Source: Candidatus Undinarchaeales archaeon (GTDB taxonomy: Archaea; Undinarchaeota; Undinarchaeia; Undinarchaeales; JALTGF01). From it: a DNA stretch of 64,000 bases. A program made the translations under genes and the position numbers. The notes beneath the pieces were generated by a model. That model did no database searches, was not told the DNA's origin, and saw nothing but the letters and a program-made list of their open reading frames with translations. Within the stretch, counting starts at the first letter, position 1. The number at the start of each line of letters is the position of its first letter. The stretch is from NCBI GenBank assembly GCA_046483005.1, contig JAWOEA010000004.1:23323-87322 (forward strand), written 5' to 3'. This document shows, in pieces, positions 2,827 to 64,000 of the stretch.

Positions 2827-5280
2827 ATGGGAGAATACAACTTTTGTCTGCTGGATGTAGATTATATCATAATTGATGAAAAGCCCGTAATTCGAATGTT
2901 CGGCAGAACAGACAAAGGAGAGAGTGTAGTTGCATTTGACCGGACATTTGAGCCTTATTTCTATATAGAATCTGAAAATCCGGAGGAATGCAAAAAGAAG
3001 CTTGAAATCCATGAACCTAATGATTATACGATTAAAAAAACTAAATTAACTGAAAAAATTCTCCTCGGCAAAAAGAAGAAAATGGTTAAAGTTTTTACAA
3101 AAAAACCCGGCGATGTTCCAAAGGCAAGAAGAGATGTAAAAAATATCGACCCTGTCAAAGAAGTTTATGAAGCTCATATTCTTTTTAACAGAAGATATTT
3201 ATTTGACAAAGGGCTCCAGCCGATGACTATGATTAAGGTAAATGGAAAAATAACCAACGATGTAAGGCTTAAAAAGGATACTAAAGCGGACAAATTCATT
3301 GAAATTGAGGGAAACCCAAAAAGCACGGAGAAACCAATTCCAAAATTAAAGGTAATGGCTTTTGATATTGAAGTTTACAATCCAAAAGGGGCTCCAAGAC
3401 CGAAGAAAGATGAAATTATTATGCTCTCATTGAAGTCGGGAGCAGAAGAAAAGGTAATCAGTACAAAAACAGTTGACAAATTTTCAGATAAAATAATTAA
3501 AGTGGATTCTGAACTTGATATTATTAAAAAATTCGAAGAAATTGTAGAAAAAGAGGATATAGACATCTTAGTTGGATACAACACGGACCAGTTCGATCTG
3601 CCGTATATAAGAGACAGGGCGGAGAAGCATAAACATACCTTCAAGCTTGGAAGAACTAATGATAAAATCAAGTTCAAGACGAAAGGAATGTTCGCCGCCG
3701 CTGAAATTAAGGGCAGGGTGCATGTCGATTTATTCCATTATGTTTCATACATCCTTAGAGGTGCTTTAGGAAGTGTAAGTAAGAGGACTCTTTCAAATGT
3801 AGCCCATGTCTTCCTTGATAAAGGAGAAGAAAAAGGAGATATTGACTGGAGAGACATGCCGGAATACTGGAACTCGGACGGCAAAAAACTGGAAACATTT
3901 TTTGAATACTCATTAAATGACGCTGTTATTACTAAACAGCTGTCAGATATTTTCACGCCGAAAATTTATGAAATTGCAAAACTTGTAAAAGTTCCTTTGT
4001 TTGATGCCAACAGAACTTCATACGGACAGTTGGTTGAGAACTATTTAATTTGGAATGCACATGAGAAGGGAGAAGTTGTCCCGAACCGGCCGAAAGAGGC
4101 AGAAAGAGAGAGCAGATATAAAAACGGCTCAATTACAGGGGCTTACGTTCATGAGCCGGAAAAAGGCATGCACGAAGATATTGCACTGCTGGATTTCAGG
4201 TCGCTGTATCCTACAATTATTATTTCGCATAATATTGACCCGGGAACTATTGACTGCAGTTGTTGCAGGGAGACTGCTGAAAGAATTGGAGATACCGGAC
4301 ACTGGTTCTGCGATAAGAGAAAAGGACTGATTCCAACTGTTCTTAATGATATTTTGAATAAGAGAATTAAAATCAAGGAAAAAATGAAAAAACTGGATAA
4401 AGGCAGTCAGGAATATTCTGAATTAGACAATGAACAATATGCTTTGAAAATTCTGGCAAACTCTGCATACGGCTACTTAGCTTACAGAAATGCAAGATGG
4501 TATACAAGAGAGGGAGCTGAATGCGTTACATATCTTGGAAGGATGTATATTAAGAAGATTATGAAAATTGCTGAAAAGAAAGGACTTGATGTCATATATG
4601 GAGACACTGACAGTTTATTTGTTACTACAAAAGAAGGCAAAATAAAGGAGAAACTTCCCGAATTCATGGAAAAAGTCAAGCCGGTTCTCCCCGGAGTTAT
4701 GGAGCTGGAGCTCGAAGGTATTTTCAGAAGAGGCATTTTTGTTTCAAAGAAAAGATACGCTTTAATTGATGATACGGATACAATGAAAATCAAGGGGCTT
4801 GAATTCGTAAGGAAAGACTGGTCCCCTTTAGCAAAAGAAACTCAAAAAAATGTTCTGCAGGCCTTGCTGAAAGACGGTTCTGCTGACAGAGCATTCGAAA
4901 TTGTCAGAAAAGTAATTAAAAAAATAAAATCAGGAGATGTAAAAAAAGAAGACCTTGCAGTTTATACTGAATTGACAAGACCTTTGGATAAATACAAAGT
5001 TACTGCACCCCATATTGCTGTCGGGGAAAGAATGAAGAGAAAAGGCAAGAAAGTAACTACCGGAACTACTGTCGGATATATTATTATGAGAAACGGAGGA
5101 AAAAATATCAGCAGCAGGGCAAGGTCAGTTGAAGAAGCACAACTGAAAAAGTATGACAAGAACTACTATATTAAAAAGCAGATAATTCCAGCCGTTTCAA
5201 GAGTAATGGAAGCTTTAGGTTACGGTGAAGATGAGCTTCTGGGAAAGAAGCAGGAAACACTGGAGGAATACTTTCAATGA
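2827..5280 (+). CDS. polB: family B DNA polymerase
   Basis: 817 aa. The exonuclease motif FDIEV and the polymerase motifs YGDTDS and KILANSAYG are present. The N-terminus is of the LLDVDYI type. Confidence 0.9.
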   Translation: MGEYNFCLLDVDYIIIDEKPVIRMFGRTDKGESVVAFDRTFEPYFYIESENPEECKKKLEIHEPNDYTIKKTKLTEKILLGKKKKMVKVFTKKPGDVPKARRDVKNIDPVKEVYEAHILFNRRYLFDKGLQPMTMIKVNGKITNDVRLKKDTKADKFIEIEGNPKSTEKPIPKLKVMAFDIEVYNPKGAPRPKKDEIIMLSLKSGAEEKVISTKTVDKFSDKIIKVDSELDIIKKFEEIVEKEDIDILVGYNTDQFDLPYIRDRAEKHKHTFKLGRTNDKIKFKTKGMFAAAEIKGRVHVDLFHYVSYILRGALGSVSKRTLSNVAHVFLDKGEEKGDIDWRDMPEYWNSDGKKLETFFEYSLNDAVITKQLSDIFTPKIYEIAKLVKVPLFDANRTSYGQLVENYLIWNAHEKGEVVPNRPKEAERESRYKNGSITGAYVHEPEKGMHEDIALLDFRSLYPTIIISHNIDPGTIDCSCCRETAERIGDTGHWFCDKRKGLIPTVLNDILNKRIKIKEKMKKLDKGSQEYSELDNEQYALKILANSAYGYLAYRNARWYTREGAECVTYLGRMYIKKIMKIAEKKGLDVIYGDTDSLFVTTKEGKIKEKLPEFMEKVKPVLPGVMELELEGIFRRGIFVSKKRYALIDDTDTMKIKGLEFVRKDWSPLAKETQKNVLQALLKDGSADRAFEIVRKVIKKIKSGDVKKEDLAVYTELTRPLDKYKVTAPHIAVGERMKRKGKKVTTGTTVGYIIMRNGGKNISSRARSVEEAQLKKYDKNYYIKKQIIPAVSRVMEALGYGEDELLGKKQETLEEYFQ

Positions 5281-56691: not shown

Positions 56692-59316
56692 TTGAAAAGC
56701 ACTTTACATGCCCCAATTATGACTATAAAATTTAAAGAGAAGCCCGCTACAGATAAATTGATCCTCTCAGAACTGGATCCCTTAGTCAGGAAATGGTTCA
56801 AGCAGAAGTTTGGGAAATTCTCAAAACCCCAAAAATATGGAATTTTACCGATCCATCAGGGAAAAAATATTCTAGTTTCAGCTCCAACCGGCTCCGGAAA
56901 AACACTTCTTGCATTTCTTTCAATTTTAAATGAACTAATTGTTTTAGCAAAAAGAGACGAACTTGAAGATAGAATTTATGCACTTTACGCTTCTCCTTTA
57001 AAAGCACTGTCAAGAGACATTGAAATAAACCTGAAAGAACCGCTGGAAGAAATGGAGGAAATTCATAGAGAATCTCTTGGAATTAGAATAGCAGTAAGAA
57101 CTGGAGATACAAGCCAGTACGAAAGACAGAAGATGCTGAAAAACCCGCCTCATATTTTAATCACTACTCCCGAAACTCTTGGAATTGTTTTGGTAGCTCC
57201 AAAATTCAAAAAGAAAATGATGGATATCAAATGGGTAATTATAGATGAAATCCATGCCCTTGCTCCAAATAAAAGAGGCGTTCATTTGTCTCTTTCACTA
57301 GAACGGCTTCAGAATTTAGCAGGACCTTACATACGAATAGGCTTAAGTGCAACAGTTGCTCCTCTTGAAGAAATGGCAAAATATTTAGTAGGTTATGAAA
57401 AAGGAAAATTGAGAGACTGTTTAATTGTTGATGTCCAATTTACGAAAGAATTAGATTTAAAAGTTTTAAGCCCTGTTAAAAATATAATCAGCGCGTCTCA
57501 GGATGAAATGCAGGAGAGTCTATATGAGTTAATGGACGACTTAATTCAGAAGCATAGAACAACACTTGTTTTTACAAATACAAGGTCTGCAACTGAAAGA
57601 GTAGTCCATCATTTAAAGACAAAATTCCCTAAAAAGTATGTTGAAAATATAGGGGCCCACCACTCCAGTTTATCAAAAGAACACCGGCTTGAAATCGAGC
57701 AGAAATTAAGAGACGGAGAATTAAAATCAGTTGTCTGCTCAACTTCTCTGGAATTAGGAATTGACATAGGGTATATCGATTTAGTCATTCTTTTAGGGAG
57801 TCCTAAATCGGTAGCAAGAGCTCTTCAAAGAGTAGGAAGGTCTGGTCATCAATTGCATGACAAGATAAAAGGAAGATTCATCGTAATGGACAGAGATGAC
57901 TTAGTCGAATGCGCAGTCATGCTCAAAGATGCAGTTGAAAAGAAAATCGACAGAATTAAGATACCCAAAAATGCACTTGATGTTCTTTCCCAGCAGATTT
58001 ACGGCATTGCAATTGGAAATCAGCAGCATATTGAAACTGTTTATGATTTAGTAAAAAGAAGCTACTGCTACCATGATTTAGAAAGAGAAGAATTCATGTC
58101 AGTTATTGATTATCTGGCAGGAGAATATGTGTCTCTTGAAGACAGAAATGTCTACGCAAAGATATGGCATAACAAAGAAAAAGGATTAATTGGAAAAAGA
58201 GGAAGACTTGCCAGAGCAATTTATTCAACAAACATCGGAACAATACCTGATGAATCTTATTTAACAGTTAAACAGAAAGATGAACCAATCGGAAAAGTCG
58301 AAGAAGCATTTTTAGAAAGAATTAAGAAAGGCGATATTTTCGTTCTTGGGGGAAAAACATACCGGTTTAATTATGCCAGAGGAATGACTATTCAGGTAAC
58401 TCCTCAACCAAATAAAGTGCCAACCGTTCCAAGCTGGTTCTCCGAGATGCTCCCTTTGAGCTACGACCTTGCCCTTGAAATTCAAAAATTCAGGAGAAAA
58501 ATGGAGGAGCAGTTTAAGGCTGAAAACTCAGAAAAAGAAGTTAAGAAATTTATTAACGATTATCTATATCTAAATGAATATGCAGTCAACTCAATCTATC
58601 AATATTTTAAGGAGCAGTATTTGTATGCAGAAATTCCTCATGATAAAAAATTAGTAATCGAGTTCTATCACGGTTTCTCAGATAAAAAGTATGTAATTTT
58701 CCATTCCCTTTACGGAAGAAGAACAAACGACGCCTTGTCAAGAGCAATCGCCTATTTAATTTCAAATGTAAAAAGAAAAAACATTGCAATTAACCTGACA
58801 GATAACGGCTTCTATTTAACAACAAACTCCGGAAAACTACAGGTACTGCAGGCTTTGAAAAAATTAAAATCTAATACTCTAAGATCAACTTTAAGAAAAG
58901 CAGTTGAAAAAACGGAAATTTTAAGAAGGAGGTTCAGACACTGCGCCGGCAGGTCTCTAATGATTTTAAGAAACTACAAAGGAAGGAAGAAAAGCGCCGG
59001 AAAACAGCAGGTCAGTTCTAAAATTCTACTTAGTGCAGTAAGAAGAATCTCAAAAGACTTTCCCATTCTAAAAGAAGCAAGGAGAGAAGTACTTGAAGAT
59101 TTAATGGATGTTAAAAATGCAGAAAAAGTACTGAAAAAACTGGAAAAAGAAAAGATTGAAGTAAAAATAATTGCAACAGATGTTCCAAGTCCCTTTGCAT
59201 TAAATTTAATTGCAAGAGGATACATGGATATCTTAAAAATGGAGGACCGACTGGAATTTGTCAGAAGACTTCACAAGACAATTCTGGAAAGGATTGAGCC
59301 CTATGAAACTGACTAA
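56692..59316 (+). CDS. lhr: Lhr-core ATP-dependent DNA helicase (SF2, DEIH)
   Basis: It has APTGSGKT and DEIH motifs, a winged helix, and the Lhr C-terminal domain. 874 aa. Confidence 0.8.
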
Positions 59317-60022
59317 CAATATTGAAGCAAGCGGTCTTGCACTTTATCTAGAAAAAAAGAAAACTTTAGTTATATCTGATTTACACTTAGGAATAGAAAG
59401 CAGCATGCACAGGTCTGGCTTTTTAGTTCCAAGATTTCAGTTCAAAGAAATAAAATCAAAGCTGGAAGAAATCTTTGAAAAATTATCTCCTGAAACGATT
59501 ATAATTAACGGGGACTTCAAGCACGAATTTGGAAAGATTCCAAAACAGGAATGGAGAGAAGGATTAAGAATGATTGATTTTTTATTTGAAAATACAGATG
59601 AACTTATACTTACAAAAGGAAACCACGATCCGGTTTTATTTCCAATTGCAGAAAAAAGAAAGGTTCCAATCAAAGAAGATGGGATTTTAATTGGAAGTAC
59701 TTACATAACCCACGGCGACAAAATTCCAAAAAACAAGGAGTTTGAAAAGGCAGATACTGTAATAATTGGAGATGTCCATCCTGCAGTCAGTTTATCTGAC
59801 AAAGGCGCTTCTGAAATCTATAAGTGCTTTCTGGTTGGAAAGTTCAACGACAAAAAATTACTTGTTCAGCCGAGTATGTCCCAGTCCTCTATCGGTTCAG
59901 ATGTTTTAAAAGAAAAAGTAAGGAGTCCTTTTCTAAAAGGCAGTCTTGACAATTTCAATGTTTTTGTATCTGCAGATAAAATAATGCATTTTGGAAAAAT
60001 AAAAAATCTCAGGGAACAATAG
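59303..60022 (+). CDS. metallophosphoesterase (MPE) partner of Lhr
   Basis: Calcineurin-like motifs DLHLG, GDFKHE and GNHD. The start is placed at MKLTNN, whose ATG overlaps the lhr stop codon (gene overlap 59303..59316). Confidence 0.7.
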
Positions 60023-60365
60023 TTTTCAAAAAATCAAGAACGATTATAATTACTGTCAGATAAAATAAATTGCTTCTGTAGAATTCAACGAGGATATTTC
60101 CGTCCCCATACATCCCTCTCAAAAGAATCATTGAAAAAATAACAAGTATTATTGATATTAAACCAATTACTGGAGTAAAGCCGTGGTGGAATAAATGAGC
60201 CATTGTTGATACAATTATTACAACAGCAAAAGCCGAAATCAATACTGGAGAAACTCCTCCTTTTGTAAATGAAAGAAAAGCAACTGCCCCTCCGAATATA
60301 ACGACTAAAAAAGTCCCTACCAAACAAACTGGATCAAAGTGCCCTTTAGTGTTTCGAGTTATCAT
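60009..60365 (-). CDS. small membrane protein (3-4 TM)
   Basis: It is hydrophobic throughout. Confidence 0.35.
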   Translation of the reverse strand: MITRNTKGHFDPVCLVGTFLVVIFGGAVAFLSFTKGGVSPVLISAFAVVIIVSTMAHLFHHGFTPVIGLISIILVIFSMILLRGMYGDGNILVEFYRSNLFYLTVIIIVLDFLKTIVP

Positions 60366-60660
60366 CTCGAATATAATATTGACTTTCTTTAAATATCTTT
60401 TTGAAATTAATTGTCTTTATTTATCGTTTTTTAATAATTTAATTGTCATACTTTTACTGTCATCAGACAAATTAGAGTCTTCAATTTCTTTCATTGTGTT
60501 TTCCGTAGTAGTATCTTCAGATTCGTCTAATGATATTTTTTCCATTGTCATTTTTATTTCATCTCTTTTTTTTATGTAGTTATAAAATATAATTAGGTTA
60601 GATAGTATTTATTTTTTTAGTTTAAGCAACCAATCCTATAATTTATATGTTTATTTGCAT

Positions 60661-60822
60661 AATAATTGATATGCCTTGGAAAATAAAACCTATCGATAAA
60701 TCAAAAATAAAAAAAGATAAATTATTATTAGAAAACCTTTTAGGAGAACTTTCAAAGAAAAAAGAAACTCCTAAAGTGAAAAAGTTAAAAGCAGAAATTG
60801 AAAAGATAAAAGAAGAACTCTA
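60661..60822 (+). CDS. small Lys-rich coiled-coil peptide (53 aa), convergent with the rSAM gene; speculative
   Basis: Manual translation: MPWKIKPIDKSKIKKDKLLLENLLGELSKKKETPKVKKLKAEIEKIKEEL. Confidence 0.2.
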
Positions 60823-60825
60823 GAA

Positions 60826-62133
60826 TTAATTTATAGTTTCTACAAGAATCGGCAACTCACTATTTTTACTTTCCAATATTTTTTTAATGCCTTTTTTAAT
60901 TTCTTCTCTTTGTAGTTTACAAAATTTTTCTGGAGGATCAGTATAACTTTTATTTTTTTCCTGATTTTCAACATAACAACTGCCTCCACAGTTCCACTTT
61001 GCAAAACATTTCTCGCATTTTTTGGACTTATGTATGGTAATTGATCTTATTTTCTTCAATTTATTTTTATTCATTTCAACACCTTTTGTAGTAACTTTAC
61101 CACAAATAAATTTATCATAGCATTTTCTATCAGCGTCCGTCATACCGTAACAGGTAGTTATATCTTTATTAGGAAGAACCATTAAATCTCCCGCGGGCAC
61201 TCCGCAATAAATACATTTAAGTGTAAAAATGTCTTTTAGTGTTTTTCTAGGTATTTTCACTGTTATCTCCTTTTTTTTGCCTAATGTTTTAGCTTTTTTA
61301 TATGATTTAATCAATTCTGATCTCTTTGGCGCTTTTATATTTGTTTTTAAACAGCGTCCTTTTTCTAAAACAACGCTCATGCCTAATTTTTTTATTCCAA
61401 GTTTTTTGGCATTTTCTATAATCTCTTCAATTTTATCACTTTCTTTTTTTGTCATAGGAAATGATATCATATAATCTACTCCAAATTTATTTAAGAGCCT
61501 AATATTTTTCTCTATCATTTTATATGATTTTTTACCGGAAGCAAGAGGTCTGTATTTATTCTGAAATTTTTTCAATAAATGAGCAGTAATTATTACTTTT
61601 GTATTATTTTCTTTAAACCACTTTGCAACTTCATCACTAAATGTCCCATTTGTAAATATTCTTGTAGCTATCTCTAAATTTTTTTTAGATGTTTTTTTTG
61701 CATATTCAACTGATTTTTTCATCAGTTCAAATTCAAGGGTCGGCTCCCCACCATAAAAGTAAATAACTAGTGTATTGGATTTTTTTGGAAGTGTCTTTAA
61801 TTTATAGTCAATAGCTTTTTTTGCAGTATTCCAATCCATCGATTTTTTATTTTTACCGCCTGAAACGTAACAGTAAATGCATCTCATATTGCAATTCTGT
61901 GTTAAAAGCAAACCAATTTCATTTGTTGTTTTTGGTTTTTTTAAACGCTTAGCGACCGGATATTTTTTTGCTTTGTTTTTTAAAGTCTCTAATGTTTCTG
62001 ACTTTGTAATTTCTCCTATTATGCCTTTTCGAGGACAATAGAATATCTTTTTTTCACCAATGTCTATCAAAAAATATTCCGAGTTTTTTTTAGAATTTAT
62101 TATATCTTCATATACTATCCTTTTTACAGTCAT
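60826..62133 (-). CDS. radical SAM enzyme with C-terminal SPASM domain and an ~80-aa N-terminal extension (peptide-modifying maturase candidate)
   Basis: The rSAM motif is CNMRCIYCY (Cx3Cx2C). The SPASM motif is CEKCFAKWNCGGSC (Cx2Cx5Cx3C), preceded by extra Cys (CIYCGV, CYDKFIC). Confidence 0.8.
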   Translation of the reverse strand: MTVKRIVYEDIINSKKNSEYFLIDIGEKKIFYCPRKGIIGEITKSETLETLKNKAKKYPVAKRLKKPKTTNEIGLLLTQNCNMRCIYCYVSGGKNKKSMDWNTAKKAIDYKLKTLPKKSNTLVIYFYGGEPTLEFELMKKSVEYAKKTSKKNLEIATRIFTNGTFSDEVAKWFKENNTKVIITAHLLKKFQNKYRPLASGKKSYKMIEKNIRLLNKFGVDYMISFPMTKKESDKIEEIIENAKKLGIKKLGMSVVLEKGRCLKTNIKAPKRSELIKSYKKAKTLGKKKEITVKIPRKTLKDIFTLKCIYCGVPAGDLMVLPNKDITTCYGMTDADRKCYDKFICGKVTTKGVEMNKNKLKKIRSITIHKSKKCEKCFAKWNCGGSCYVENQEKNKSYTDPPEKFCKLQREEIKKGIKKILESKNSELPILVETIN

Positions 62134-62235
62134 TTTAATTACCTTTTAGATTTCTAATTATGATTACTGAGACTACTTGTTCTCCTTATTTATGAAAATT
62201 CTCTTACGATTTACTATTTTTTTATTTATACTGTA

Positions 62236-62424
62236 TTAGAACATAGAAGAATCCGGCGCTGCCCAGCAATAATTGCATGCCTTTATAGTATTCTCGTCTT
62301 TATGTTCAATCATTGCACCTTTAACTTTATCTTTACAACTTGGATCAAGATCTAGTTTTACTACTTTAGTCATTATGTCTTCTACCTTTTTGTCTTTTAT
62401 TCCTTTACCTTTTCCATTTGTCAT
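62236..62424 (-). CDS. 62-aa Lys-rich peptide with C-terminal Cys/Trp core (CNYCWAAPDSSMF); candidate precursor peptide for the downstream rSAM/SPASM enzyme
   Basis: It lies 102 bp upstream of the rSAM gene on the same strand. A strong SD, ggaggtga, sits 8 nt before the ATG, and a TATA-like tatattaa about 35 bp upstream. Three Cys lie in the C-terminal half. Confidence 0.45.
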   Translation of the reverse strand: MTNGKGKGIKDKKVEDIMTKVVKLDLDPSCKDKVKGAMIEHKDENTIKACNYCWAAPDSSMF

Positions 62425-62508
62425 TTTCTAGTTCACCTCCTTTTCCATTTTATCTTAATATACTTTAATTAAACAAACTTTATATCTTTTCCCATCTACT
62501 TTTAAGAT

Positions 62509-63522
62509 ATGAATATCACAAAAAGCAGAGTATCTGAACTCTGGAAATTAAGCAGAGAAAAATATCCGGACAAATATTCTCTATCTGAAAAAAGCAATAA
62601 CTTACTAAAAGAAGAAAAAATACCAATTTCTGTTCCAACTCTCCATTTTAAATCAGAAAACATTTCAGCTTATCAAAGCCATTCACAGAGGTCTGCCTGG
62701 CTGCATAAACCTTGGAAATCAAAAAAAGTTTGGTATCCGGGAATAGAATACAAGGGAATAGGTGACAACGGAAATAAAATAAGGTCTTTGGGAAAGACTG
62801 CCTGGGGCGGACTTGAATTAGAAAAAACAACCCTAGAGCATAAGTTTTCAAGAAAAGCATTCAACGCCGGAATTTTCTGCCAGAGACCGATTGCCTGCTA
62901 TGAATACGGCGAATTCAAAGGAAAAAAGTTAGCAGTTTTGGTCAGAACATTTGTTTCTCCTTTAAGGCTGTCTGATTTCCATTTTGATGAGGAATTCCTT
63001 TCGAAATATTTGGACTTTAGAGAACAAACTGAAGAAGAATATGTAAACTCATTAGCAGAAATACTTGGAAAAAACGTAAGAAAATTATTCGATATTGGTC
63101 TAATCCACGGCTCGTTAGAAATGAATAATATAACTACAGAAGGAGAACTGGCTGATTTTGAACCAACAAGCGGAGGAACATGGGAAGGCGTAATGGAAAA
63201 CAAGGAGCCGAAATTTAGAGTTTTAACTTTAACAAGACTATTTTCAGCCATTAATGATATTTTTACTGAAACGGATACCTTTCTAAATACTTTTACAGAA
63301 ATGTTTTTCAATAAAAATATAAGTTTAAGTTCAAATTTCCCTGAAAAAGAAATAGTAGAAAAGTATATAGGAAAGGAACTTACTGAAGAAGACCTGAAAA
63401 TTAAGTTTCCCGAATTTAAAAATATAGAGAAAGCAAAGAAAATTCTCAAAAAAGCCAGAAAGAAAACCACTTCTGAAAAGGAAAAGAAACGATTAGATTT
63501 TATTTTGAAAGAACTAGGTTAA
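62509..63522 (+). CDS. hypothetical protein, possibly protein-kinase-like fold with atypical catalytic loop
   Basis: IHGSLEMNNITTEGELADFE resembles the kinase HxDxxxxN...DFG region, but the catalytic Asp is replaced by Ser. It is divergent from the peptide/rSAM pair. Confidence 0.3.
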   Translation: MNITKSRVSELWKLSREKYPDKYSLSEKSNNLLKEEKIPISVPTLHFKSENISAYQSHSQRSAWLHKPWKSKKVWYPGIEYKGIGDNGNKIRSLGKTAWGGLELEKTTLEHKFSRKAFNAGIFCQRPIACYEYGEFKGKKLAVLVRTFVSPLRLSDFHFDEEFLSKYLDFREQTEEEYVNSLAEILGKNVRKLFDIGLIHGSLEMNNITTEGELADFEPTSGGTWEGVMENKEPKFRVLTLTRLFSAINDIFTETDTFLNTFTEMFFNKNISLSSNFPEKEIVEKYIGKELTEEDLKIKFPEFKNIEKAKKILKKARKKTTSEKEKKRLDFILKELG

Positions 63523-63561
63523 ACGCCAATATTTTTATACTTCTTTTCATTATCAACTCCC

Positions 63562-64000
63562 ATGCACTTAATACCCAAAAAGTCAAGCCTTAAAAAATTC
63601 TGGCGGATTATGAGCTACTCCAAAGCCCATAAATGGAACTTTGTGGTTTTGTTCATTCTAACAATTTTAATTTCAGGAATCGCACTTGTAAATCCTTACC
63701 TAGTTAAAATCTTAATTGATGATGTTTTATTGTCTCAGAATTTCGATTTATTTTTCCTAATTCTTCTAGTATTTTTGGGAATGTTTGTTGTTGGCTCCCT
63801 AATAAATATTGCACTCAATTATGTATCAACTAAATTGACTGCAAATCTTGTTTTAGATGTAAAGAAAGATCTTTTCGAGCATTTAGAAAACCTCCATCTT
63901 GGTTTTTATCATTCAAAGAAAGTAGGTGATATTCTCTCAAGATTGAATGATGACGTTTACGGCGTTGAAGCTTTTTTAAAAACAGTAATTAATGAGGTTC
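63562..64000 (+). CDS. ABC exporter transmembrane domain (type I, MsbA-like), truncated by the window end
   Basis: Manual translation gives MHLIPKKSSLKKFWRIMSYSKAHKWNFVVLFILTILISGIALVNPYLVKILIDDVLL...DVKKDLFEHLENLHLGFYHSKKVGDILSRLNDDVYGVEAF. This is the canonical ABC exporter TM1-TM3 and signature region. Confidence 0.65.
   Translation, partial: MHLIPKKSSLKKFWRIMSYSKAHKWNFVVLFILTILISGIALVNPYLVKILIDDVLLSQNFDLFFLILLVFLGMFVVGSLINIALNYVSTKLTANLVLDVKKDLFEHLENLHLGFYHSKKVGDILSRLNDDVYGVEAFLKTVINEV

Follow-up and report, generated by a model that had tools for sequence, protein, structure and literature searches.

A putative RiPP-like peptide maturation and export cluster with a SelO-like protein as its conserved core in a Candidatus Undinarchaeales archaeon

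DPANN archaea are host-dependent and their genomes are tiny, so that each conserved accessory module in such a genome is a candidate for host interaction, and we know of no DPANN secondary metabolite that has been characterized. In this regard, a contig of Candidatus Undinarchaeales archaeon, a member of DPANN, raises a question at the right end of the stretch of 64,000 nt analysed here (the window): does a short peptide gene beside a radical SAM (rSAM) gene, divergent from the genes of a kinase-like protein and an ABC exporter, represent a system for peptide maturation and export, and which of its components is central to it? In a 2025 genome-mining survey, clusters of the ranthipeptide and sactipeptide types were predicted across the superphyla of archaea, also in DPANN, and few archaeal RiPP products had been identified according to that paper (PMC12144867). 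The rSAM and peptide half of the locus is the kind of cluster covered by that survey, in which the term 'kinase' is absent.

An earlier note on this DNA had placed a 62-aa peptide gene, with its Shine-Dalgarno sequence, 102 bp upstream of an rSAM/SPASM enzyme gene and had placed a 337-aa protein and an ABC exporter divergently from both, and all of these positions and motifs were found as claimed. The candidate precursor gene (62236..62424, minus strand, 62 aa) follows the Shine-Dalgarno sequence GGAGGTGA (62433..62440, minus strand), read from the sequence 8 nt upstream of the peptide ATG, while a spacer of 102 bp between peptide stop and rSAM start (62134..62235, minus strand), likewise read from the sequence, separates it from the gene of the radical-SAM/SPASM peptide-maturase-like enzyme (60826..62133, minus strand, 435 aa). 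Upstream of the peptide gene, the region 62441..62508 contains A/T-rich TATA-like elements and probably acts as a divergent promoter for this gene and for that of p337 (62509..63522, plus strand), the 337-aa protein. The gene that follows it encodes a fused type I ABC exporter and is cut by the window end, so that only its first 146 codons are included (63562..64000, plus strand).

The 435-aa enzyme carries the rSAM motif CX3CX2C as C81, C85 and C88, which are invariant, and a GGE motif at residues 128-130, and its match to PF04055 (64.9 bits, gathering cut-off 29.5) places it in the radical SAM superfamily. Its C-terminus contains CX2CX5CX3C plus additional cysteines, as expected of a SPASM protein, with a total of seven (C310, C328, C373-x2-C376-x5-C382-x3-C386 and C405); in SPASM domains, the additional cysteines serve as ligands of two auxiliary [4Fe-4S] clusters. 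It matches CteB and the PapB, Nif11 and SCIFF maturases best, and anSME less well, although its scores fall below the cut-off of every named curated maturase family in NCBIfam (PapB, 146 against 340; SCIFF, 121 against 425; Nif11-rSAM, 144 against 519). Judged by these profile scores, PapB, SCIFF and Nif11-rSAM are the closest families, yet the enzyme is a member of none of them. The CX3CX2C motif, the seven SPASM cysteines and the RiPP maturases as top matches support the earlier view of a SPASM-type, peptide-maturase-like rSAM enzyme. Grouping with anSME next to a sulfatase had been named beforehand as the outcome that would speak against this view and did not occur: the anSME model TIGR03942 scored 77 against a cut-off of 349, the lead of RiPP maturases over anSME amounted to 20 orders of magnitude for NCBIfam models and to 11 in a PDB sequence search, and the sulfatase motif C/S-x-P-x-R was found in no window ORF of at least 250 aa. 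An anSME identity was thus rejected.

The proposal that the enzyme begins with an RRE-like extension of about 80 aa was confirmed only in part. The extension is present, measures ~70 aa and carries the clade-conserved motif Y-I-I-Y-V-P-R-K-G-I, whereas a Pfam search of this region in six members of the clade gave no match, to PqqD or to any other family, with the threshold as wide as E<=10. An RRE is understood here as a leader-binding, PqqD-like winged helix at the N-terminus, with three strands and three helices; the AF2 model of the extension (pLDDT 30-58) predicts two strands and two helices. More distant relatives of the enzyme (L002-L006) are found in other multi-rSAM clusters or on contigs too short to show a peptide context.

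The 62-aa peptide consists of a Lys-rich N-terminal region followed by the C-terminal ...IKACNYCWAAPDSSMF, and an ortholog occurs at the same position in L001, the only close relative (74% aa and 86% nt identity). Past codon 6, substitutions between the two are distributed as 11/3/12 over the codon positions, and dN/dS is 0.25, compared to 0.47 for an antisense ORF (62273-62431, plus strand), which thereby agrees less well with the substitution pattern. From the ortholog, the codon-position pattern and a dN/dS below that of the antisense ORF, it follows, at the level of sequence comparison, that the 62-aa ORF is a real gene under purifying selection. The spacer downstream of it is less conserved (66% identity to L001), 'AAAAGGAGGTG' is kept at the Shine-Dalgarno sequence, and Rfam gave nothing credible that would attribute the high nucleotide conservation to a known ncRNA. 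The three cysteines reported for the C-terminal core do exist (C30, C50 and C53), but only two of them lie in the C-terminal string quoted at the time, C30 being located in mid-peptide; C30, H41, C50, C53 and W54 are identical in both orthologs.

Three features define a RiPP precursor: its gene is short and adjoins that of a modifying enzyme, its leader is conserved while its core varies, and the product is modified after translation. Adjacency to the rSAM gene and purifying selection are both observed for the 62-aa peptide, and a leader/core pattern is suggested by one marginal third sequence, a 60-aa ORF of the independent homologous cluster L010 that resembles the N-terminal ~40 residues (two-thirds) of the peptide and differs at the C-terminus (E 0.022 among 2,482 ORFs; shuffle p<=0.002). 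The family therefore comprises two clear members and this marginal relative. A word-seeded search returned the ortholog and no distant homologs, and three repeat proteins from an exhaustive HMM search of 1.84 billion representatives were discarded, as they share only a 'CW-x-APD' or 'NYCW' string with the peptide.

On the other side of the promoter region, p337 is kinase-like, as had been described, and without catalytic Asp, and its closest structures are SelO/YdiU, clearly the best by two independent methods. The SelO active-site set consists of the beta3 Lys, the alphaC Glu, an Arg pair 7 residues apart and an Asn/Asp pair 9 apart, without HRD Asp, and the roles of these residues in SelO have been described, the Arg pair holding the gamma-phosphate of a flipped ATP (PMC8097203). 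In the p337 family (21 members), K82, E110, R146, N207 and D216 are invariant, R153 is kept in 20/21 and the HRD-Asp position is S, T or A in 19/21, and the R146/R153 and N207/D216 spacings equal those of R170/R177 and N247/D256 in E. coli SelO. Both the active-site set and the SelO-closest kinase-like fold are thus found in p337. The relationship is one of fold and motif, and sequence homology is not established: a Pfam scan gave no match to p337 at E<=1, the SelO family included, SelO was not among the PDB sequences found with a p337 profile, and hhalign against E. coli SelO was not significant (probability 0.9%, E 0.059).

The earlier idea that p337 plays an accessory role did not stand. 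No other component occurs in all related loci, with the rSAM gene being found in just 5/14 informative p337 loci, and for this reason the SelO-like p337 is now regarded as the most widely conserved part of the cluster rather than a peripheral one. Its homologs share 31-69% identity and have otherwise unrelated genomic flanks; no viral or mobile copies of p337 were found. An ABC exporter adjoins the p337 homolog in 13/14 informative loci, and one p337 locus (L020) has no ABC transporter on 15 kb. The transporters are of two unrelated architectures, namely type I exporters in fused form and DrrAB-like ABC2 systems encoded by two genes. That exporters of two architectures accompany p337 despite unrelated flanks indicates selection for export rather than inherited synteny. 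The claim of a divergent ABC exporter is borne out by the full-length L001 ortholog (581 aa), on which the type I assignment is based, with fused ABC_membrane (1.1e-45) and ABC_tran (2.6e-34) domains. Its alignment to bacteriocin/HlyB-type exporters starts at about position 140 of the bacteriocin_ABC profile, so that the C39 peptidase domain is absent, and no leader peptidase was found in the cluster.

In 5/5 long-contig members of the rSAM clade (window, L001, L010, L011 and L020), a p337 homolog is found no more than two genes away, which is hard to explain without functional coupling. The L010 cluster combines the homologous rSAM, two B12-rSAMs, p337, an ABC exporter and the leader-like peptide, and among related loci the added tailoring genes include ApyD-like B12-rSAM and tandem GNATs, which are classic RiPP tailoring genes. 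A known anti-phage defence system was also considered and rejected, since the similarity reported by PADLOC was partial and generic only: viperin resembled the rSAM core (residues 75-168), and generic ATPase models matched the ABC ATPase, with nothing for p337 or the peptides.

Small ORFs of 37-63 aa occur beside p337 nearly everywhere, often as tandem paralogs (seven in L017, four in L022, three in L024, and two each in L012 and L009), as is typical of precursor-peptide arrays. One of them is a second small peptide gene in the window (60647..60823, plus strand, 58 aa as listed), convergent with the rSAM gene and absent from the earlier note. Its conserved part begins at an internal Met ('MPWKIKPIDK...'), which makes 60671 the probable start and ~50 aa the probable length. 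L001 has a conserved copy (64% aa identity), an HMM built from the copies of the window, L001 and L013 also picks up L019, and no other among the 2,482 ORFs scores as well; the copies adjoin a p337 homolog in 4/4 cases. A single superfamily for all p337-adjacent small ORFs was rejected (hhalign probabilities <=6%), and given this lack of profile-profile homology between the groups, it is from position that a common class of p337 peptide substrates may be proposed. A short helix motif, [LIVM]-[DE]-x-A-h-x-x-[LIVM], recurs in these ORFs and is not counted as evidence because it was defined post hoc.

On the basis of the genes present, their motifs and folds, their conservation and their linkage in gene neighbourhoods, we read the locus, with moderate confidence, as a putative cluster for the maturation and export of a RiPP-like peptide, with a SelO-like, putative nucleotidyltransferase as its conserved core. 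We infer the following course. The 62-aa peptide would be translated from its own strong ribosome-binding site, its Lys-rich N-terminal ~43 residues serving as a leader-like recognition region and its C-terminal ~19 residues, with Cys and Trp, as the part to be modified. Using a 5'-deoxyadenosyl radical and two auxiliary Fe-S clusters, the rSAM/SPASM enzyme would introduce an intramolecular cross-link into the peptide; the similarity of the enzyme to CteB and PapB makes a thioether derived from Cys the most likely link, with a C-C link involving the conserved Trp as an alternative. By analogy with SelO/YdiU, p337 may bind ATP or another NTP in a flipped orientation and transfer the nucleotide monophosphate, or else activate a carboxylate as an adenylate, its putative targets being the neighbouring 62-aa peptide and/or the 58-aa 'MPW' peptide, and the ABC exporter would secrete the product.

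It appears unlikely that the locus instead joins two unrelated modules, namely a ranthipeptide- or sactipeptide-like pair of rSAM and 62-aa peptide and, separately, p337 with the ABC exporter and helical ORFs, where SelO-like AMPylation would regulate the transporter or another protein and the small ORFs would encode regulators or peptides secreted without modification. Such a division would agree with SelO/YdiU enzymes modifying proteins and not peptides (PMC8097203), with most p337 loci being without rSAM, and with helical peptides near p337 that mostly contain no Cys and belong to groups not demonstrably homologous to the 62-aa peptide; on the other hand, it is at odds with the 5/5 association of the rSAM clade with p337 and with L010, where one operon contains the genes of the leader-like peptide, the ABC exporter and a B12-rSAM, at a distance of 1.6 kb from p337 and the SPASM rSAM. 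The peptide itself could be a small metal-binding or redox protein with C30, H41, C50 and C53 as a Zn or Fe site, the rSAM maturing a larger protein or a cofactor elsewhere, like anSME, QhpD or PqqE. Conservation over the whole length of the two orthologs, with no obvious hypervariable core, and the invariant Cys3His set speak for such a protein, but of these four putative ligands, the L010 relative has kept just the Cys that aligns with C53; the window ORFs of at least 250 aa lack the sulfatase motif, the lead of RiPP maturases over anSME in both searches is large, and the exporter and tailoring-enzyme context fits a secreted peptide, which makes this explanation quite improbable.

Doubt can also be directed at p337, which, instead of being a nucleotidyltransferase, might phosphorylate small molecules or proteins in the conventional way, like Bud32, RIO or WaaP, or might be a scaffold devoid of catalytic activity. 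This alternative is rather improbable in view of the agreement of two methods on SelO/YdiU as top structures, the SelO-specific Arg pair at identical spacing and the loss of the HRD Asp in 19/21 members, in spite of a weak Bud32 HMM match (E 0.091) and the non-significant sequence similarity to SelO, and the invariant metal and nucleotide ligands speak against a dead scaffold. Compared to SelO/YdiU, a protein AMPylating/UMPylating pseudokinase of ~480 aa, p337 shares ~14% identity over a shorter chain of 337 aa, lacks the C-terminal regulatory domain and has Asn in place of the Asp just before the catalytic-loop Asn. Its gene lies among those of small peptides and an exporter; for SelO, the literature searched described no such context and no link to peptide natural products. 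NIS siderophore synthetases (IucA/IucC, AcsD, SbnC and AsbB) are multi-domain proteins of ~550-600 aa that act on small molecules, with ~10% identity to p337.

ATP-dependent phosphorylation within RiPP clusters that contain an exporter has a precedent in the kinase domains of class III/IV lanthipeptide synthetases; unlike in p337, the catalytic Asp is retained in those of LanKC/LanL, which occur in fusion with lyase and cyclase domains. For ATP-dependent peptide nucleotidylation, MccB of microcin C type provides the precedent, again in a RiPP cluster with an exporter (PMC13255007), and has an E1/ThiF fold instead of the kinase fold of p337. Neither MccB nor LanKC/LanL was among the sequence or structure matches in our analysis. 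As regards the rSAM half, the best sequence and structure matches, CteB (SCIFF maturase) and PapB, form ranthipeptide thioethers and have in common with the 435-aa enzyme the CX3CX2C core, a seven-Cys SPASM domain and an adjoining gene for a short Cys-containing peptide; the present enzyme differs in its DPANN host and in a shorter N-terminal domain (~70 aa) with no recognizable PqqD-like RRE, and its peptide, with 3 Cys, is unrelated to SCIFF or PapA.

If p337 does act on the neighbouring peptides, AMPylating pseudokinases would, beyond regulating proteins, have a role in the biosynthesis of peptide natural products, a new RiPP-like class could be mined by the signature of p337, small peptides and an ABC exporter, and p337 would represent a 337-aa minimal SelO for mechanistic work. 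It is conceivable, although we regard it as doubtful, that an undescribed and mostly DPANN class of peptide systems exists in which a minimal SelO-like pseudokinase nucleotidylates or adenylate-activates ribosomal peptides before export, with rSAM/SPASM, B12-rSAM and GNAT enzymes as interchangeable tailoring modules and with secreted episymbiont factors, signals or weapons directed at hosts or competitors, as products. On a conservative reading, the rSAM/SPASM and 62-aa pair is a compact candidate archaeal cross-linking system outside all curated maturase families.

At the margins of the cluster, a 118-aa membrane protein (60009-60365) and a 44-aa ORF (60417-60551) were not counted as members; both are kept only in the syntenic relative L001. 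Within the divergent promoter region, 'GGAAAAGAT[A/T]TAAA' is likewise kept in L001.

An ABC exporter adjoins p337, the 337-aa protein with a SelO/YdiU-like pseudokinase fold, or its homolog in 13 of the 14 informative loci compared (the exception is locus L020), while the flanks of these loci are wholly different, with pentose-phosphate genes, ribosomal proteins, FtsZ and ProRS among the genes present there. Two kinds of exporter occur, a fused type I protein and a DrrAB-like ABC2 system of two genes. Between p337 and the exporter, or next to them, there are small ORFs of 37-63 aa, frequently in tandem arrays of paralogs, with seven copies in L017, two each in L012 and L009, four in L022 and three in L024. 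The SelO-like enzyme, the small peptides and the exporter form a conserved triad, accompanied by variable tailoring enzymes. Such an organisation is that of a RiPP-like family with p337 as its signature enzyme, and the version present in the window adds a predicted cross-linking enzyme of the radical-SAM (rSAM)/SPASM type and a Cys/Trp peptide. Homology between the different groups of small ORFs near p337 was not demonstrable; relatives of the 58-aa ORF of the window ('MPWKIKPIDK…', 60647-60823), a member of the small-peptide family adjoining p337, are found next to p337 in L001 (a close syntenic relative), L013 and L019. In L017 (8471-9959), the seven tandem paralogs, of about 57 aa, separate the p337 homolog from a DrrAB-like ABC2 transporter in a locus that has no rSAM; they share two conserved Cys (…SVCSALYRAKENMGR…PPQTPMGKLEAAMSIL…GKC…), and two related copies occur in L012.

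Searches of Pfam and NCBIfam assigned p337 to no family, the best result being a weak Bud32 match (E 0.091), and about 20 homologs were recovered with identities of 29-69%, labelled, where a label is given, as Undinarchaeales, Ainarchaeum, Woesearchaeota, 'archaeon' and one 'Methanobacteriota' MAG. Invariant in this family are K82, E110, R146, N207 and D216, R153 is kept in 20 of 21 members, and the HRD Asp position is occupied by Ser, Thr or Ala in 19 of 21, which bears out the degenerate kinase-like catalytic region described in the earlier note. It has been shown that in SelO the counterparts of this Lys and Glu, together with two Arg spaced seven residues apart, grip the gamma-phosphate of a flipped ATP, that Mg2+ is bound by an Asn and an Asp, and that the HRD Asp is likewise absent (PMC8097203). 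Residue spacings are identical in E. coli SelO (RVAPSHLR, HGVMNTDNMSLLGLTLDYG) and p337 (RTFVSPLR, HGSLEMNNITTEGELADFE). Because homology between the two is statistically not established at the sequence level, p337 is named SelO-like rather than a member of the SelO family.

In the window, ORF calls matched all gene positions of the earlier note, namely the rSAM gene (60826-62133, minus strand, 435 aa), the 62-aa peptide gene (62236-62424, minus), the p337 gene (62509-63522, plus) and the ABC exporter gene (from 63562, plus), whose ORF is truncated by the window end. The Shine-Dalgarno element claimed for the peptide gene can be read 8 nt 5' of its ATG (GGAGGTGA), and peptide stop and rSAM start are indeed 102 bp apart. 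The rSAM enzyme carries CX3CX2C (C81/85/88), a GGE motif and seven SPASM cysteines (C310, C328, C373-x2-C376-x5-C382-x3-C386, C405); these cluster cysteines and motifs are kept across 66 homologs. Among NCBIfam models it matches the maturases of PapB ranthipeptides (1.5e-42), Nif11 peptides (6.9e-42) and SCIFF (5.3e-35) better than anSME, the anaerobic sulfatase-maturating enzyme (1.3e-21), and among PDB sequences CteB (1.5e-21) better than anSME (3.8e-10); the anSME-type identity considered in the earlier note is further disfavoured by the absence of a sulfatase motif from window ORFs of 250 aa or more. Since every NCBIfam score is far below the curated cut-off, the enzyme is placed, on sequence grounds, as peptide-maturase-like, of SPASM type and outside all named families. 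By similarity its product would most likely be a thioether; SPASM enzymes also form C-C and C-O links. Its N-terminal extension of about 70 aa, which may be an RRE, has a clade-conserved motif (…Y-I-I-Y-V-P-R-K-G-I…), no PqqD match in six clade members and a model of low pLDDT (30-58).

The 62-aa peptide has only one other copy among 5.8 billion proteins, and no homolog came out of an exhaustive profile search across 1.84 billion representative sequences. L001, the 14.7-kb contig that holds this second copy, has the gene order of the window (ABC, 336 aa, then divergent 63 aa and rSAM). Nucleotide identity between window and L001 is 86% for the peptide gene versus about 71% for neighbouring genes (rSAM 71%, p337 72%) and 66-71% for flanking intergenic DNA, the amino acid identities of peptide, rSAM and p337 being 74%, 64% and 69%. 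Substitutions in the peptide gene fall 11/3/12 by codon position, with a dN/dS of 0.25. Its dS (62236-62424 versus L001 9698-9889) is about 0.54, all neighbouring genes being at 1.5 or more or saturated, and the gene may be constrained beyond its amino acid sequence, for example by codon bias from high expression or by mRNA structure.

The 62-aa ORF could instead be a small metal-binding protein, the rSAM substrate being a protein elsewhere; residues invariant between the two copies are C30, H41, C50, C53 and W54. A 60-aa ORF of L010, an independent homologous cluster, aligns with the first ~40 peptide residues and diverges thereafter, being the top non-self match (E 0.022, shuffle p<=0.002) in a set of 2,482 ORFs, an apparent leader/core pattern drawn from few sequences. 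It could also be that the locus consists of two independent modules, one in each half; the rSAM clade occurs in five loci only (window, L001, L010, L011 and L020), each time beside p337. The chemistry of p337, and the peptides as its substrates, we infer from fold, residues and gene neighbourhood only; alternatives for p337 are a phosphotransferase of the ordinary kind and a scaffold devoid of activity. Read as a RiPP-like cluster, the rSAM and peptide half is a new example of an already known kind, because clusters of ranthipeptide and sactipeptide type have been reported from genome mining throughout the archaea, including DPANN, with few archaeal RiPP products identified (PMC12144867). The novelty lies in the SelO-like core module, a predicted new variant, since no paper describing such an enzyme within a peptide cluster was found in the searchable literature.

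Tailoring genes differ between loci, L010 having two additional B12-rSAMs, one ApyD-like, and L011 and L020 tandem GNATs, with a CxxCxxCC protein also in L011. Another small ORF of L010 (11011-11181, minus; …KKDVERIVSNLKNLHLEDAEANEFIEQISDLCSG), with a helical N-terminus and C-terminal Cys, lies between p337 and the SPASM rSAM and may be a second precursor of that locus. In L020 (9-15177), p337, GNAT, rSAM and a 344-aa protein lie amid defence-island-like genes (SNF2 helicase, PD-(D/E)XK nuclease, PglZ), and this contig has no ABC transporter. L012, from a Candidatus Ainarchaeum MAG, carries tandem p337 paralogs (3210-4229 and 4249-5265). At two independent loci (L009, 5704-6699, minus; L007, 16157-17011, minus), the p337 module has a Fic-domain gene beside it or in its vicinity, which may be coincidence; besides SelO, Fic forms the other major family of AMPylases. 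L002-L004, the contexts of the search hit P0004, hold a different cluster in which three rSAM genes in a row and the gene of a 148-aa protein precede several PQQ-like beta-propeller/TPR proteins; the middle rSAM is 28% identical to that of the window. P0117, a 402-aa secreted repeat protein from the representative library, was rejected as a peptide homolog, only a 'CW-x-APD' string being common to both; it has eight 'HCWEAPDGQV/IHCS' units, with Lys-Arg (KRQE) in front of most of them and ERQE in front of two, and looks like a Kex2-processed fungal repeat-peptide precursor.

The window cluster is bordered by a 118-aa multi-pass membrane protein (60009-60365, minus) and a 44-aa acidic ORF (60417-60551, minus), both conserved in L001 only, which could be immunity or accessory genes or mere syntenic neighbours. 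GC content is below the window mean of 35.2% in the rSAM gene (28.1%) and the 58-aa ORF (23.2%; together 60647-62133), which could reflect Lys-rich coding or foreign origin. Directly upstream of the cluster lies a pair formed by an Lhr-type large helicase (DEAD, WH_Lhr and DEAD_assoc domains; 56692-59316, plus) and a calcineurin-like metallophosphoesterase (59258-60022, plus), whose ORFs overlap by 59 bp.
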